Virus record (IMG/VR): IMGVR_UViG_3300039155_000018
Span: 64,001-86,300 of that record
DNA from: a virus
Lineage: Duplodnaviria; Heunggongvirae; Uroviricota; Caudoviricetes
Reading direction: 5' to 3' (one strand)
DNA length: 22,300 nucleotides
Below, one piece after another: positions 6,594-14,304 of this stretch (position 1 is the stretch's first letter; every line of letters starts with the position of its first letter). The position numbers were made by a program, and so were the translations under genes. Under the pieces are notes generated by a model. It did no database searches. It was not told the DNA's origin and saw nothing but the letters and a program-made list of their open reading frames with translations.

Positions 6594-7590
6594 CATTTAC
6601 TTGTTAATCAAGGCTCGTTAATTCCTTGACCACCCACTTTAATCTCTACCGTAGTTATTACGGGATGTAGCACCTTTGTTAATATGTTCACTTAGGAACA
6701 TACAAGCTTCTCGGGAGTACGTGTCATTCCCCGGAATCTTCAAGTCTTTCTCTAGATTGTACTTGGTGTTACCTTCCTCAAAACCAAGAAGCCAATCATC
6801 AAAACCCTCTAACTTCGGCAAATCTTCTAGGAAGTTAGCAAAACACTTCCAGCGATCATCGACAAAACAACGTCCGTAGTACCCTTTGTCATCTTTAGGG
6901 TTATAGCAACGCTTCATCATGTTGCTCCAGAGTTGTTTAGCCTGTTTCCAATAAGGCTTTGATTTTGAATACTCTCCAAGATAGCCTATGCCAAGAAAAC
7001 TCTTACTGTACGGATCAGAGACTTTGCCAACTTTTACATTTTCAATAAAACACTCTCGAATATATCCTGTATCATTGAACTTAACGATACACTTCTTGGC
7101 GTTCTTCTTGATGATGGTAAACTTGTGACCACTGTTGGAGATTCCTGCCTCTTGGCAATCTTCCCAGTCTTTCAGCGCGTGATGAGGTTTTGTATAATCT
7201 TTTACTTTACCAGCTAGTAGGTTTGCCCTGTAAACAAGAGTCTCGTAACCAGAATCTACAAAAGACACTAGAAACTTTTGACCTTGCTTTTCAACAACCC
7301 GAACATCCCCGTACTTGTTAGTAGGCATTACGTCGCCGATCTCAATTGCAGTTAGAGCTTTACGTCCCATAGAAATTCTCCTATATTATTAACTTAGTGG
7401 GTGCTGCATATCGCTATGCAGAGCAGACTATCTCTTCACGCTCTAAAGCGTGCTCCCCGTTTCGGGCCACTTGACCCTACATAATAGTCGTTACACGTTC
7501 CTATTTCTAGGCTTCGCTCGGGATTGTCTCTTTAAATTCTTATAGAAATGTTCCCCGAATTAGAGGAGTTTATAGACGACCAGTTTGTCA
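6594..7590 (-). mobile_element. Group I intron (IA-type, 997 nt) in terL
   Basis: Exon 1 ends in U, and P1 is GACGAU/GUCGUC with the U-G pair. P3 CUCCUC/GGGGAG; P4 UUCGGG/CCCGAG; P7 GACUA (7485-7489)/UAGUC (7426-7430); P7.1 GGGUC/GGCCC; P8 CACGCU/AGCGUG; P9 CUGCAUA..UAUGCAG; P9.1 CACCCACU/AGUGGGUG; P9.2 GUCAAGG/CCUUGAU; terminal G at 6594. Confidence 0.93.
6639..7370 (-). CDS. Intron-encoded homing endonuclease (His-Me/HNH-like, 243 aa)
   Basis: Looped out in P9.1; AGGAG RBS; C-terminal W.NM.KRCY...RW..F.NFL.D...LEKD block typical of phage homing endonucleases. Confidence 0.8.
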   Translation of the reverse strand: MGRKALTAIEIGDVMPTNKYGDVRVVEKQGQKFLVSFVDSGYETLVYRANLLAGKVKDYTKPHHALKDWEDCQEAGISNSGHKFTIIKKNAKKCIVKFNDTGYIRECFIENVKVGKVSDPYSKSFLGIGYLGEYSKSKPYWKQAKQLWSNMMKRCYNPKDDKGYYGRCFVDDRWKCFANFLEDLPKLEGFDDWLLGFEEGNTKYNLEKDLKIPGNDTYSREACMFLSEHINKGATSRNNYGRD

Positions 7591-8961
7591 ATCGTCTTTA
7601 TTCTTCCTTTCTCCTGTGAACTGTTCGAGTTCATCAAAGAAAGTATCATTCCAAGGACCCTCGATATAATCAATAAGCCCCATCTCGGCAGCAGTAGCAA
7701 ACGGTTGGAAACGTAAGACTTTACTCTTACTCCCCGTCCCCATAAAAGCAGGGGTAAACCCTTCATACTGCAAAGCCTTCAGTTGAGCGCCGGCTGCAAT
7801 CTTACCTGCTTGTCCCGGCTCCTTCGGCAAGAGAATCTTGGTTCCATAAGGATCTTTTCGGGCACAATCAATGATACGCTGCATTACAGTCCCGTAGTTT
7901 TCGCGGAACCTTTCGACATCAATGATTACATACCTACCTTGCTTTGTGCGGGCCATTAAAACGCCGGCAGAAAAATCTGGATTTGTATTTACCTCTGAGG
8001 GCTTACTTCCAGCAAGGTCCCACGCACGAACATAGGACACAAACTCTTGCTCGTGGTACTTTACAGGGAGTGTCCAATCCTTCTGAAAGAAATTTGAAAC
8101 CTCCTCTTTTACGTCCCAACTCCCGTAGAGGTCGCGCTCGCGCTTTACACGCTTCAGACCTTGGAGGTTTGCGAGGTAGCCAGGGTTTGCCCTGAGCAAC
8201 GGCGGGTTATCGAAGATGGTTGCACTGATAAACTGCAAAGAAAGTGGTCGGCAATGTTGATGTTCTGACTCATCTGGGATAAGATTACCATTCAGATCAC
8301 GATTACCGTACTTCTCTAGGAGTTCTTCTCTCGTGTCAGCCCAGATCATTTCACTAGAATCACGAATGAACCAACGAATCTTACCGTCTCGTTCTGGGTT
8401 AGGGCGACCAGAGTTCTCTTCGCCTTGTGGAATAATCCACCAATCAATCCAACGTCTAATAAATGATGTTGGGGAGGGATTGCACGAAATCCAGAGCGAG
8501 GGCTTCATCTTCGCTTGTGTGCGAAGACGAGACAAAATTACAAGTACATTTTCTTCAGAAAATTGCGTACCCTCATCTAGCATTGCCGCACTAATCTGCA
8601 ATCCACGGTATTTCTCGGCATCTTCCTCTGTATCCAAGTGCCCAAAGGCAACTTGGCCACCAGAAGGAAAAATCCAACGCATCTCCTTTGCTTTATACAC
8701 AGCATCTGGGTATACGTCTTTATACAAACCTTTTGATTCGTCAATAACACCACCAGCTTTAGCTAGGGTTGTCTGGTGTTTACGAATTACATACCCTCTG
8801 TAGAGAGGGTCTTCGACCCATCGTAGATGGCGCATAAGACCGTTGAAAGTCTTACCACCACCCATGGCTCCGCCATAAATGATGATGTCAGCATTACTTT
8901 GTAGGAACATGGCCTGCTTTTTACTAGCAGGCCCAAACACTTTCTTCTCTTCTTTACTCAC
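7591..8961 (-). CDS. terL: Terminase large subunit, exon 1 (457 aa, GTG start)
   Basis: Walker A GGAMGGGKT, Walker B AMLDE, coupling motif SCNP, nuclease WDLA; ends KNKDD at the intron boundary. Confidence 0.95.
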
Positions 8962-9538: not shown

Positions 9539-9784
9539 TTATTTACGCTTTCGTTGGTTTGGACGTGTAATCTGCACAGAACCTGCTTGTGAAGCCATAT
9601 TGCCTCGCAGGGCTGCTACAGCGTCATTTGGATTGGTGAAGATTTTAGCATCTTGCACATATCCCCACTTACCATCTTCTTTTAGGTACTGGTTATAACC
9701 ATCAATATGTGGCTTCACGCACGCATACTGTCCGCGAACGCTATTAAAATTACTTTGTACGTAAGGCTCTTTAATCTGAATCAT
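9539..9784 (-). CDS. Hypothetical protein (81 aa)
   Basis: ATGA overlap with the TerS candidate; AAGGA RBS. Confidence 0.7.
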   Translation of the reverse strand: MIQIKEPYVQSNFNSVRGQYACVKPHIDGYNQYLKEDGKWGYVQDAKIFTNPNDAVAALRGNMASQAGSVQITRPNQRKRK

Positions 9785-10212
9785 TGTAGTGTTCCTTTCT
9801 CTGGTAGACTATCTAGGGTGTATGGAACTTCTCCATCAGAGATAAACTCCATAGTGAAGCGAGCACCAGTTTCTTCAGACTGTGCATCTTCCATATCTTC
9901 TTTCCCTTTAGCGGACAATCCGTTAATTGTAATTTCTTCTGCCAGAGCTGCCTTATTCACAACAACAGTGTTCTGTAGAATCCACTTTGCTGTAGCGACA
10001 GCTTCTTTATCTACGGATTCAGTCTTCAGAGACTTCTCAATCACCGCAAATGATTCAGGATTAAGTGCTAGCAGTTTGCTCTCAATTGTCCGTAGACGAC
10101 TACGCTTCAGACCTGTCTTACCACTTCCCACAGGGCGGCCCGCAGGATTGAGACTCTGCATCCCCTTGTGGAAGTTGGGATTGCCCGGCCCACGTTTCTT
10201 TTTATCTGTCAT
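9781..10212 (-). CDS. Terminase small subunit candidate (143 aa)
   Basis: N-terminal GNPNFHKGMQSLNPAGRP resembles the F.KG.S.NP.GRP motif of many TerS/DUF5681-type proteins; lies upstream of terL; AGGAAAGG RBS. Confidence 0.6.
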   Translation of the reverse strand: MTDKKKRGPGNPNFHKGMQSLNPAGRPVGSGKTGLKRSRLRTIESKLLALNPESFAVIEKSLKTESVDKEAVATAKWILQNTVVVNKAALAEEITINGLSAKGKEDMEDAQSEETGARFTMEFISDGEVPYTLDSLPEKGTLQ

Positions 10213-11143: not shown

Positions 11144-11226
11144 TGGAGAGCGAAGTGGGAGTCGAACCCACATTTTCAGTTCCAGTTACCCTTAACTTTT
11201 TAGAAGAAAGTTGGGACTATTCGCTC
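11144..11226 (-). ncRNA. tRNA-like RNA (83 nt) with a UCU anticodon arm but no D-arm
   Basis: Acceptor GAGCGAA/UUCGCUC + U + encoded CCA; canonical T-arm GUGGG-UUCGACU-CCCAC; hairpin AACUUU-CUUCUAA-AAAGUU. Confidence 0.75.
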
Positions 11227-11245
11227 TTAATTGGCTTCTACTTTA

Positions 11246-11273
11246 GCTCTAATCCAGACTGAGCTACGAGAAT
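11246..11273 (-). pseudogene. tRNA 5' fragment (acceptor strand and D-arm only)
   Basis: AUUCUCG-UA-GCUC-AGUCUGGAUUA-GAGC is a normal tRNA 5' third; no anticodon arm, T-arm or matching 3' acceptor strand follows. Confidence 0.6.
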
Positions 11274-11276
11274 ATA

Positions 11277-11350
11277 TGGTGCCCACACTCCGTAACGCTC
11301 GGAGGACTAATACTTACAAGGTACTTGTTATACTATTTAACTATGTGGGC
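11277..11350 (-). tRNA. tRNA-Thr(UGU) with non-canonical D- and T-loops
   Basis: GCCCACA/UGUGGGC + A + CCA; D-stem GUUA/UAAC; anticodon arm AGUAC-CUUGUAA-GUAUU; T-arm CUCCG-AGCGUUA-CGGAG; 74 nt. Confidence 0.85.
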
Positions 11351-11358
11351 TTATGGGA

Positions 11359-11433
11359 GGGATTGTTCGGGAATCGAACCCGAGTCTCCGTCTGTGCCGA
11401 CGGTGCGCTATACCACATTATCACCAACAACCC
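11359..11433 (-). pseudogene. Degenerate tRNA (Ala-like G3-U70, 6-nt anticodon loop, no encoded CCA)
   Basis: Acceptor GGGUUGU/ACAAUCC; canonical T-arm UCGGG-UUCGAUU-CCCGA; anticodon arm CCGUC-GGCACA-GACGG. Confidence 0.7.
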
Positions 11434-11436
11434 CAA

Positions 11437-11485
11437 AAAGAATCTTTCTTTTAAAGACTTCACAATCCCTAAAAGAAAGATTCCC
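11437..11485 (-). other. Long hairpin (14-bp perfect stem + 6 bp, GUGA tetraloop): RNase III site or terminator
   Basis: GAAUCUUUCUUUUA/UAAAAGAAAGAUUC plus GGGAUU-GUGA-AGUCUU, followed by U5. The G-U pairs and GNRA loop form only on the minus strand. Confidence 0.75.
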
Positions 11486-11499
11486 GTAATAGATGAAAC

Positions 11500-11657
11500 T
11501 ACAATACGAGAATCTTAATGCCAGCTCTGAGCGGGAGGAGGACACCCGGAGCTGACGGAGAGCTACCGTTAGGGAGTACCTTTCGGTAGCGGTTTCTGAC
11601 GCAAGGAGAAAACGTCAGAAGGAGAGAAATCAAACAATACGATTTAACACCACATGA
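11500..11657 (-). ncRNA. Candidate sRNA with multiple exposed CUCC motifs
   Basis: Directly downstream of a promoter; no credible ORF; three hairpins with loops UUUUCUCCUUG, UACUC/GAAA and UGUCCUCCU. Confidence 0.6.
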
Positions 11658-11663
11658 AAGGTA

Positions 11664-11692
11664 AGTCTAACATATATTTCTATACAAGTCAA
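11664..11692 (-). promoter_or_regulatory. Sigma70-like promoter of the ncRNA island
   Basis: TTGACT-N17-TAGACT. Confidence 0.7.
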
Positions 11693-11719: not shown

Positions 11720-11899
11720 CTAGTAAGGTCTGACTTGACGAAAAAGACTTTCAGTTTCTGTGATCCCTTCAAACTGGTATTCCCAACGGAACACAGGTTC
11801 AATCATTTCTTCCTCAGAAATCAGGATGTGCTTTAGGTCTTCTTCGTCAAGCTGTTCTAGGAAGTCAGATACTTCCTGATAAATTGTATCTGTAGTCAT
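11720..11899 (-). CDS. Hypothetical acidic protein (59 aa, MTTDTIYQEVSDFLEQL...)
   Basis: Hand-translated, below the ORF-track cutoff; downstream of a promoter; weak RBS. Confidence 0.55.
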   Translation of the reverse strand: MTTDTIYQEVSDFLEQLDEEDLKHILISEEEMIEPVFRWEYQFEGITETESLFRQVRPY

Positions 11900-11950
11900 A
11901 TTTATTCTTCATGTTAAGTGAATCCTCCAAATTCGTTAGAAACTTTGTAT

Positions 11951-11980
11951 ACTATACCAAACTGAAGAAGAGTTTGTCAA
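11951..11980 (-). promoter_or_regulatory. Sigma70-like promoter
   Basis: TTGACA-N18-TATAGT with TG upstream of the -10. Confidence 0.65.
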
Positions 11981-12787: not shown

Positions 12788-14143
12788 TCACTTCTTGTCA
12801 ATTTTACAGAAGGTTGTGTCACCTAGAACAGTTTTCCACGCTTGCAGCATGGCATCTCTAAGGTCATCCTCTCCGCTACTCTTCACGATTGCAGAATCGT
12901 GGTATGTGAGGATAGTGTATCCTTTCTGAATCATCGTATCAACCACTTCCATCATAATCTTACTATCCGTGTTCTGGAGGAACACACCTTGGTCAGAGAA
13001 GAATTTCTCTGCAATCCAATCGTTATGCTCTTGAACAGCATCCAACACGAACTGCGAGCTAATTTTCCCTAGGCCAAAGAAGTCTTGTTCCTCTGTGGTT
13101 TTCCCTGCATCTGTCCTAATCTTATTGGATAACCCACTGATTGCTTGCTTCCTATCAACGCTGTTCATCCCAATCAGAATGGCCAGCTTGGACAGATTCC
13201 GAAGAGGGTCATGCTTCTTTCCTGTGAGTTTTTCTTTATAACTTACATCTTCTTGGTTAACAGGTACAAATGAAAGATCGGCACCATAAGGGCTAAAATC
13301 CTCCCCCATTACGTCCTTGACGTTGAAGCCGTCATATGAGTACAGAATCTGATAGCATATATTTGGATGAATTGCGCTGTAATCAAGCTCTACTACTGGC
13401 TCATCATCAATAGTCAAGAATTCAGAGCGAAGCTTCTGGGGTAGTAACTGTACTCCGCCACCCTGTGCATAGATTCTTCCGGCGATCTCCATAGAGTCAA
13501 GGAACACCCTTTTGTATTCCACATCGGCAATAGCCTTACCATTGAACTTGATGTTTGCTCCAGATAAGCTCTCATTAAATTCCATAACTTTACTCCTGAT
13601 TTCTTTAATACCGACTTTACCTTTTGTGCTAAGAGTTTGTTGTGTTTCTCTATTCCGCACTTCAACGCATTCCGTCTTCTCTATCTCATCCCAGAGATTC
13701 CCGAATTCTTTGTTTGAATTCCACAGTTCTAATGCTCTGTGACGAAATACTACACAAGAGGACATGGTTCTCTCAGGAACCCTTTTACCATTCTCAATCT
13801 TCCAAGAGATGACATATCCTTTGTAAATGTCTATGTATGACTTCTCTTCAAGGAACTCAAGAAGCCCCTTAACTCCTCGATAACCAATATCTAACTTATT
13901 TCCCGTGTAGGCGTTCTTGTCAAGTGTAATCCTGAACCCTTTAGCATTCTTCTTCATAGCCCTTGCCATGTTAGATACAAACCACTTAACACCTTTAGAG
14001 AATTTACCATCTGTATGACTAAGCAAGCTATCCACAACAGATTGGTAGTATTTGGATTCGTGATAGAACAAATAGCTTCTTACGCAAGACAGAGACAGGG
14101 AGTGTACCTGTATCTCATCCATACTGCTTAATTCATAAATCAA
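12788..14143 (-). CDS. Family-A-related (TV-Pol-like) nucleic acid polymerase (451 aa)
   Basis: GRIY..GGG.Q.LP...R; motif A VVELDYSAIHP; motif B RNLSKLAILIGMN; motif C LTYHDSAIV; no exonuclease domain. Confidence 0.7.
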   Translation of the reverse strand: MIYELSSMDEIQVHSLSLSCVRSYLFYHESKYYQSVVDSLLSHTDGKFSKGVKWFVSNMARAMKKNAKGFRITLDKNAYTGNKLDIGYRGVKGLLEFLEEKSYIDIYKGYVISWKIENGKRVPERTMSSCVVFRHRALELWNSNKEFGNLWDEIEKTECVEVRNRETQQTLSTKGKVGIKEIRSKVMEFNESLSGANIKFNGKAIADVEYKRVFLDSMEIAGRIYAQGGGVQLLPQKLRSEFLTIDDEPVVELDYSAIHPNICYQILYSYDGFNVKDVMGEDFSPYGADLSFVPVNQEDVSYKEKLTGKKHDPLRNLSKLAILIGMNSVDRKQAISGLSNKIRTDAGKTTEEQDFFGLGKISSQFVLDAVQEHNDWIAEKFFSDQGVFLQNTDSKIMMEVVDTMIQKGYTILTYHDSAIVKSSGEDDLRDAMLQAWKTVLGDTTFCKIDKK

Positions 14144-14159
14144 TTCATTCTTACTCCTG

Positions 14160-14199
14160 TAGATAGTAGAGAGAAGGGAGAGAGGTAGAGAGAGGGGGG
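14160..14199. repeat. Polypurine/polypyrimidine tract
   Basis: tagatagtagagagaagggagagaggtagagagagggggg; almost entirely purine on the plus strand. Confidence 0.7.
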
Positions 14200-14304
14200 C
14201 TACCTGTATTCCAGTACAAACTCCTCTGTAGCCCGCATGGCTGCTGGGTTTCTCAAAATTATTGTACGATTATTAACCAATCCGTCATACCTCCAAGTCC
14301 CTCA

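Follow-up and report, generated by a model that had tools for sequence, protein, structure and literature searches.

The stretch of DNA analyzed here, hereafter the window, comprises the last 22.3 kb of the 86.3-kb IMG/VR virus record IMGVR_UViG_3300039155_000018 (44% G+C), and carries on its minus strand, at 11435-11692, a predicted promoter, a row of hairpins and a terminator that together form a compact RNA element. Read along the minus strand, the order runs from a polymerase-like gene of 451 amino acids (aa) through four small open reading frames (ORFs), the RNA element, tRNA-like genes and an HNH gene to a gene resembling that of the small terminase subunit (TerS), the gene of the large subunit (TerL), which is interrupted by a group I intron, and the portal and capsid genes. 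Approximately 1.2 kb, with the tRNA genes and the HNH gene between, separates the RNA element from the terminase genes. Even the nearest cultured relatives, which are phages of Gammaproteobacteria, are distant: the capsid protein shares 40% identity with its counterpart in Pseudomonas phage phiPMW, and the polymerase-like protein 32% with that of the Ounavirinae phage vB_PsaM_M1. We take the source to be an uncultured, Felix-O1-like (Ounavirinae-related) phage.

The original prediction had singled out 158 nucleotides (nt) of this region as a promoter-driven small RNA displaying six CUCC motifs that resemble the anti-Shine-Dalgarno (anti-SD) tail of 16S rRNA. All of the words it listed are present on the minus strand, where the flagged stretch has seven CUCC and no GGA; the eight GGA that it reported for the plus strand are also there. 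The CTCC density of this stretch is the highest among all 158-nt segments on both strands of the 86.3-kb genome (mean 0.62-0.74). The minus-strand sequence of 11470-11665 folds at -67.9 kcal/mol (z = -7.63, with 0 of 200 shuffles as good) into three hairpins followed by a fourth. In the partition function five CUCC words are exposed (probability unpaired, P, 0.74-1.00), whereas the word in the 5' linker is partly open (0.31) and that in GCUCCGG is hidden within the hairpin-3 stem (0.17), so that an anti-SD-like display is borne out for five words rather than six. The promoter, predicted at the position originally proposed, agrees with the consensus at 9 of 12 positions and has the TG extension (consensus scan), and the predicted transcription start lies near 11657. 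The unit does not end at 11500, as had been supposed, and instead takes in the fourth hairpin and, as terminator, a 20-bp hairpin tailed by U5, reaching approximately 11435. The base of the terminator stem reads UUUCUUUUA...UAAAAGAAA, and hairpin 4 and the terminator hairpin share GAAUC, making them partly alternative folds. A predicted sigma-70 promoter and a U-tailed terminator enclose an ORF-free unit, an arrangement conserved in two relatives described below, L076 and L002. From these features and from its conservation we conclude that 11435-11692 is a real, selected, stand-alone phage noncoding RNA gene, with a predicted transcript of approximately 190-220 nt, and in this the original prediction stands (Table 1).

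Table 1. Positions in the window of the parts of the RNA element and of its neighboring genes.
Feature	Position	Strand	Details
Predicted sigma-70-type promoter	11664-11692	minus	TTGACT (11692-11687), 17-nt spacer, TG-extended TAGACT (11669-11664)
Variable 5' leader	11632-11657	minus	carries 5' copy of the 9-nt repeat; not conserved between window and L076
Start of conserved core	11621-11631	minus	linker GAUUUCUCUCC with first CUCC, then UUC; 100% identity with L076 begins here
Hairpin 1	11594-11620	minus	fold; 9-bp stem, loop UUUCUCCUU; CUCC P unpaired 1.00
Hairpin 2	11562-11590	minus	fold; 7-bp stem, 15-nt loop UACUCCCU containing ACUCCCU; stem kept in relatives
Single-stranded linker	11557-11561	minus	UCUCC; P unpaired 0.97; identical in L076
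Hairpin 3	11520-11556	minus	fold; two-part stem with three G.U pairs, loop UCCUCCUCC; P unpaired 0.95, 0.78
Hairpin 4	11479-11514	minus	folds; followed by UUUCUUUU; identical in L076
Intrinsic terminator	11435-11483	minus	terminator scan; 20-bp hairpin 11483-11440 and U5 11439-11435; closes block identical with L076
451-aa polymerase-like gene	12788-14143	minus	
Two or three tRNA-like genes	11147-11434	minus	downstream of the RNA element
Small-terminase-like gene	9781-10212	minus	

A sister phage, L076, came from an IMG/VR pattern scan; its terminase, portal and capsid genes match those of the window at 93-95.6% identity along 9.4 kb. The RNA core, from 11631 to approximately 11436 (196 nt), has not a single substitution between the two, an outcome whose chance at the background rate we estimate as 0.94^196, or ~5e-6. 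The sole difference within the core is a 13-nt indel, by which the 15-nt ACUCCCU loop of hairpin 2 becomes a UAAC tetraloop in L076. The transcribed leader upstream of the core has diverged sharply, and at the aligned promoter position L076 has TTGACA-17-TAAAGT with a TG-preceded -10 element. In contigs from bovine and compost metagenomes the ORFs at 11790-11970 are heavily changed and the RNA hardly at all; the hairpin-2 loop of these contigs is approximately GUCA, as reconstructed from a 13-nt deletion and two substitutions, and hairpin 1 is unchanged in these variants as it is in L076. On these comparisons the RNA core is under purifying selection, or was recently exchanged as a unit. Because the loop of hairpin 2 shrinks to a tetraloop while its stem is kept in relatives, we regard this hairpin as a structural spacer in which CUCC is dispensable; its loop motif UACUCCCU, one of the six originally proposed, is not conserved.

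Three other features of the region were considered and set aside. An overlapping 44-aa frame is excluded as a gene because the 13-nt indel seen in L076 and in the bovine and compost contigs is not a multiple of three. The 9-nt direct repeat acaatacga, said to bracket the cassette, does occur at 11501 and 11634, but its 5' copy is missing in L076; we estimate the chance of a repeated 9-mer within ~230 nt at about 1 in 10, and a role as the boundary of a mobile cassette was rejected. A likeness of GUUUCAC...UAAGAAA to a type I-F CRISPR repeat was dropped, the two words being ~240 nt apart.

The element has counterparts in more distant phages. For the neighboring 451-aa protein ~98 homologues were found, and an alignment of 26 of them led to 27 viral loci. 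A blastn search with the RNA against these loci gave no similarity, and relatives were instead located from synteny, with scans for hairpins and with covariance models. Searching for CUCC-loop hairpins yielded clusters of two to four in 15 loci, in every case on the strand of the genes and for the most part ~1-3 kb 3' of the 451-aa gene. A covariance model with a one-sequence seed (R1) was rebuilt from 14 sequences (R2), and R2 recovers all 15 loci (E 4e-19 to 9e-4) together with one copy in each of three further genomes in which the cassette lies elsewhere relative to the polymerase gene. A covariance search had been suggested in the original prediction; over 18 related contigs R2 finds one cassette per genome (E 1.6e-17 to 9e-4), with compensated stems, and whole-genome searches likewise give one copy per genome. 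The 18 carriers, each with two to four hairpins, are more distant uncultured phages of ~85-90 kb; contig L059, examined as a closer relative, has no cassette within 5 kb.

Among the relatives the stems are unrelated in sequence. MAFFT failed on them, and a model-guided alignment was used instead; this alignment leans towards structure, and a control in which the pairing partner is slid, as well as the raw folds, therefore matters. In it, 92.8% of stem cells are paired, compared with 50.9% after shuffling and 35-46% with the partner slid, and compensatory double changes occur at all 35 of 35 pairs. CUCC is present in 43 of 45 loops, loop 2 is 97% pyrimidine, and stem composition is ordinary. 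The commonest loop 8-mer is CUCUCCUC, with loop lengths ranging from 8 to 35 nt and the motif at varying positions. Many members begin with GUUUCACC immediately after the CCA end of a tRNA, and many end in a hairpin of ~70 nt, with base UUUCUUAAG...CUUAAGAAA, located 14-25 nt before the start codon of the small-terminase-like gene. L002, whose polymerase-like protein is the most similar to that of the window among the fetched loci (70%), carries a compact form of the element in this slot (z = -5.25), with a TG-bearing TTTACA-17-TATAAT promoter (11 of 12), CCUCC words in linkers and in one loop, and an 8-bp terminator with a U-tract. The conserved parts that are free of CUCC in L005, L007, L010, L013, L018 and others are GUUUCACC with a hairpin whose loop is AAGAnnnAAAUUCUAnA, and the ~70-nt terminal hairpin, which shows compensated changes. 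Part of this first loop (in the AAGAnnnAAAUUCUAnA hairpin) repeats the 5' arm of the terminal hairpin, and an alternative pairing is conceivable.

The window RNA occupies the slot and strand of this family, 3' of the 451-aa gene, beside the tRNA genes and 5' of the TerS-like gene. It also has the row of hairpins, the pyrimidine loops with their CUCC words and, before hairpin 1, a linker with CUCC, at whose position relatives have UUCCUCC or UUCUCCC; the base of its terminal hairpin resembles theirs as well. R2, built without the window, scores it at 19.8 bits (E 0.33), as the best nontraining match, on the right strand and shifted by one hairpin, and the single-sequence model R1 at 18.4 bits (E 0.066; 11519-11624, minus); a whole-genome R2 search with a lossy prefilter did not return it. 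The family's 5' GUUUCACC, its hairpin 0 with a AAAUUCUA loop and its middle hairpin with base CUUAAAGA...UCUUUC are not in the window, whose leader bears a loose resemblance to the family's 5' features (CUUUCAU, AAAUC) that is not conserved in L076. Our conclusion from these comparisons is that the window RNA belongs to the family or is a close analogue of it, being either a homologue diverged beyond the reach of the model or an analogue that replaces it in the same slot.

As originally supposed, the RNA appears to be undescribed. Rfam 15 has no family for it, with nothing above threshold; blastn of the region and of a relative's cassette against a collection of cultured phages gave no near or distant match, leaving the family absent from Rfam 15 and from the cultured phage genomes searched. 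A search of Pseudomonas phages vB_PsaM_M1 and phiPMW and Aeromonas phage 2L372X with R2 found none, a weak negative given the lossy prefilter, a single-protein locus search returned nothing, and no paper describing the RNA was found in the literature. The best non-tRNA Rfam match in the window, L013 and L002 is ar14 (RF02344), at 27.9, 24.0 and 22.3 bits over the three. In the window this match (E 0.0047 in a 1-kb search) is driven by hairpin 3 and falls below the gathering threshold of 58.8 bits, and a gathering-level Rfam scan did not report ar14.

Rfam ar14 represents the cuckoo, or alpha-r14, small RNAs of Alphaproteobacteria, which include NfeR1/SmelC397 and RSs0680/CcsR1-4. A cuckoo RNA has two to four hairpins next to one another; the stems vary greatly, and each loop holds CCUCCUCCC, a C/U-rich anti-SD word (PMC4615179). 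In NfeR1 three CCUCCUCCC loops silence mRNAs redundantly by occlusion of the ribosome site (PMC10746234). The phage RNA is similarly a row of hairpins without a multiloop, consisting of three motif hairpins plus end hairpins, and its stems are unrelated among relatives. However, CCUCCUCCC is found only in hairpin 3, where the loop and the first base of the 3' arm spell the exact cuckoo word, while hairpin 1 has UUUCUCCUU and hairpin 2 ACUCCCU; the phage family word is CUCUCCU/CUCC in most loops, with a consensus of CUCUCCUC among the relatives. Additionally, the cuckoo RNAs are encoded by chromosomal or plasmid genes of Alphaproteobacteria, whereas the RNA described here is part of an 86.3-kb record of virulent-phage type, keeps to a fixed slot near the tRNA and terminase genes and has extra conserved end hairpins. 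On this sequence comparison the window RNA is an analogue of cuckoo/alpha-r14 RNAs and not a member, and convergence and the capture of a cuckoo RNA are indistinguishable. A separate element on L077 (IMGVR_UViG_2534681796_000001; ~2700-2900, minus), a G+C-rich viral contig of 41 kb, has hairpins and linkers with UCUCCUCCUCCC and CUCCUCCUCCC and may be a cuckoo-type RNA of a phage or prophage of a high-GC host.

Other known RNAs share single aspects of this design. Staphylococcal RNAIII and RsaE/RoxS, regulators with C-rich loops, have several hairpin loops with UCCC or CCCC that pair with the ribosome sites of many mRNAs (summarized in PMC4615179). In contrast with the phage RNA, they are Gram-positive chromosomal genes with other loop words, and there is no homology in sequence or structure. 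T4 band C/D (species 1 and 2) and sRNA1/sRNA2 of Pseudomonas phage PAK_P3, a distant relative of the Felix-O1-like phages, are likewise small and stable, and virulent phages encode them in the midst of their tRNA genes or next to these; we know of no function for them. The annotated neighborhood of the PAK_P3 RNAs, a DUF5681 gene, tRNAs and the large terminase gene, is the same as that of the RNA described here; the two PAK_P3 RNAs have no row of CUCC-loop hairpins and fold no better than shuffles. They are abundant late in infection (PMC4933390). We regard the PAK_P3 and T4 RNAs as positional precedents only.

We propose, with confidence that is roughly even, that this gene of, or analogous to that of, a Felix-O1-like phage family produces a stand-alone RNA acting by anti-SD occlusion. 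Its effect would probably be to damp translation: the exposed UCUCCU/CCUCCU words would pair with the GGAG core of Shine-Dalgarno sites, UCUCCU being able to pair with (A/G)GGAG(A/G) when wobble is counted, and the RNA would rival the 16S rRNA 3' tail for these sites and keep 30S subunits from binding, as the cuckoo RNAs, staphylococcal RNAIII and RsaE do. With several loops that can stand in for one another, the RNA would have many messages, not a single one, as targets. Within the phage the candidate targets would be mainly early and middle messages, and the RNA might thereby help the switch to late expression, which is the weakest step of the proposal. Anti-SD pairing is the most economical explanation because the design matches that of the cuckoo RNAs and because the phage has GGAG 5-11 nt before the start in 84 of its 148 genes. 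Complementarity of at least 7 contiguous nt between exposed RNA segments and the ribosome site was found for 34 of 80 early/middle genes compared with 5 of 35 late genes. To our knowledge, few regulatory RNAs of virulent phages are understood. All that this family conserves is a series of exposed words that complement ribosome-binding sites, and the RNA is located where the late genes begin; if the proposal is correct, it would represent a simple route by which a phage re-programs translation by RNA and not protein, and would extend the principle of cuckoo and RNAIII from bacterial stress regulation to phage development.

Several points weigh against anti-SD occlusion. The RNA is known here from sequence alone, and the covariance-model membership of the window RNA in the family is marginal, at the R2 score given above. 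Most phage genes use GGAG, and a general anti-SD RNA would be expected to hit the phage itself too. No specific target proved to be conserved: even the longest complementarities of four relatives are within the range of shuffles. Finally, late structural genes in the window's genome (late block 46.3-74.3 kb) have GGAG less often than early/middle genes (40% vs 79%, p 8.5e-5), as do those of four relatives pooled (38% vs 59%), but this deficit occurs in five of seven related genomes tested regardless of whether a cassette was detected: a relative without a detectable cassette shows the bias (46 vs 73%), and a relative with a high-scoring cassette barely does (44 vs 51%). Late-gene avoidance of GGAG is thus not specific to the RNA and was rejected as evidence of function; the mechanism can accommodate the trend but gains no support from it. 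AAGGA-type ribosome sites precede the capsid and decoration genes.

A general rather than a specific set of targets is more likely. The RNA segment 11546-11561 (minus), formed by the linker and the 5' arm of hairpin 3, has perfect complementarity over 16 nt to positions 30131-30146 of the genome, in codons ~28-32 of a 74-aa ORF (genome 30003-30227, minus). One of 200 shuffles reached 16 nt, and the ribosome site of the same ORF, GAAGGAGAG, matches the 5' linker of the RNA over 9 nt. Four relatives have no comparable counterpart, and the match was rejected as a conserved target and kept as unexplained. In the terminator of the capsid gene (1551-1600, minus) the 5' arm, GGGGAGGAGGAGA, is made of purines and the 3' arm of pyrimidines, and the 5' arm is complementary to the hairpin-3 loop over 10 nt. 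This complementarity of UCCUCCUCCC to 1596-1587, pointed out in the original prediction, is real, but a special role is not supported: the match is of low complexity and falls short of the longest ones attained by shuffled copies (10-16 nt).

The alternative that survives best, which we consider possible but clearly less probable than action in trans, is that the element acts in cis, or via a protein, within the late transcript as the leader part of a packaging operon. In one variant the element would be freed together with the tRNAs and serve in processing or stability; in others it would be an antitermination RNA, resembling HK022 put or lambda nut/boxB with a phage factor bound to it, or a pyrimidine-loop platform for S1, Rho or a phage RNA-binding protein. 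The family supplies further arguments here against anti-SD occlusion in trans: of 19 related loci, 12-13 have the cassette directly within the 5' leader of the small-terminase-like gene, and its terminal hairpin there, 14-25 nt before the start codon, has no U-tract, which fits a cis-acting or co-transcribed element at least equally well. There is no room for a promoter between the end of the cassette and that start codon, and the cassette starts right after the CCA end of a tRNA in L005, L013, L016 and L018. None of 18 first downstream ORFs has a GGAG site, and its absence at the small-terminase-like gene is consistent with self-silencing being avoided as well as with a role in cis. The repetition of one loop word over several hairpins is likewise a hallmark of protein-titrating RNAs, and the position between replication and late genes matches that of lambda 6S RNA/tR'. 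However, in the window, L076 and L002 the RNA forms a separate unit from its own promoter to a U-tailed terminator, and in the window it is ~1.2 kb from the terminase genes; both points favor action in trans. Moreover, a different gene follows the cassette in several relatives, and the variable loop length and motif position noted above suit base pairing better than recognition of a fixed shape. We know of no protein that reads CUCUCC loops.

A broader form of the anti-SD proposal, which we consider doubtful, would make the RNA a phage-made mimic of the ribosomal anti-SD tail, produced with the late genes, that silences GGAG-led host and early/middle messages while late messages with AGGA or GAGG escape. 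The T4 RegB protein is responsible for early-message shut-off, and if the broad mimic were true, it would be an RNA counterpart of RegB across an uncultured Felix-O1-like clade.

Two further alternatives derive from the Csr/Rsm systems, whose RNAs CsrB, RsmY and RsmZ are also hairpin rows that repeat one short loop word. The phage word is instead the complement of theirs, CUCC in place of GGA, when read on the strand to which wobble pairs, promoters and terminators point; on this strand of the flagged stretch a test for the CsrB/RsmZ type found no GGA. The element could be a sponge for host small RNAs, in which CUCC loops pair with the GGA loops of CsrB/RsmY/RsmZ-type or other purine-rich small RNAs and so free CsrA/RsmA. 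UCC loops are formally complementary to GGA loops, and Csr/Rsm systems are used by Gammaproteobacteria, the hosts of the nearest cultured relatives, but we judge this sponge very unlikely: the complement of the conserved word CUCUCCU, AGGAGAG, suits Shine-Dalgarno sites and not the CAGGAUG-type sites of CsrA, whose consensus from selection in vitro (SELEX) is of that type.

Still less credible to us, and already disfavored in the original prediction, is that the plus strand is the functional RNA and titrates CsrA/RsmA with GGA loops. Its eight GGA are in loop or linker positions, and a layout of several GGA hairpins resembles RsmZ and CsrB. The wobble pairs in the stems, however, fit only the minus strand. 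In the aligned family of 15 related RNAs there are 58 G.U and 6 A.C on the CUCC strand, and a scan that treats both kinds of mismatch alike, and is thus unbiased, gives 21 and 6; the four G.U pairs in hairpins 1 and 3 of the window would be A.C mismatches on the plus strand. Promoter and terminator are on the minus strand in all three phages in which they were identified (window, L076 and L002), every cassette is on the strand of its flanking genes and tRNAs, and a scan found no plus-strand promoter reading into the element. Because the G.U excess, promoters, terminators and flanking genes all share one strand, we read the functional RNA in the CUCC sense, and a CsrA sponge from the plus strand is unlikely. 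Least tenable of all is that the element has no function of its own and is a chance cluster of motifs or a decaying intergenic remnant, a view to which the chance-level details (9-nt repeat, capsid-terminator match, hairpin-2 motif) lend some color but which is contradicted by the conservation data, namely 0 substitutions in 196 nt against 4-7% divergence in neighboring genes and compensated stems with conserved loops in 18 other phages, as well as by the fold (z = -7.6).

The surroundings of the element include several further structured RNAs. The tRNA-like gene at 11147-11226 (minus) has a perfect acceptor stem, a T-arm and CCA, and lacks a D-arm; its anticodon hairpin is of the Arg(UCU) type, and it contains a long additional segment. 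It scores 37.4 bits with the Rfam tRNA model, and a similar D-armless form is found in L008 at ~7300-7390. A third tRNA-like sequence, at 11352-11438 (minus), has a good T-arm and a 6-nt anticodon loop and was missed by both the Rfam tRNA model and ARAGORN, which found no tRNA over the whole window. This third sequence is absent, by an 87-nt indel, from a compost-metagenome relative and has tRNA-Asn in its place in L076, which carries four canonical tRNAs (Asn, Pro, Thr, Arg-tct) 3' of the RNA. The group I intron of the large terminase gene is at 7404-7646 (minus; Rfam, 81 bits) and is followed by an ORF for an HNH endonuclease (6639-7370, minus); L021 has two group I introns in the same region. 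Finally, in the leader of the 451-aa polymerase-like gene, a CUCUC-rich, all-pyrimidine tract of 35 nt (14166-14200, minus) sits ~15 nt 5' of the CAGGAG ribosome site of that gene, where it may be a cis-acting anti-SD element or an S1-binding element.

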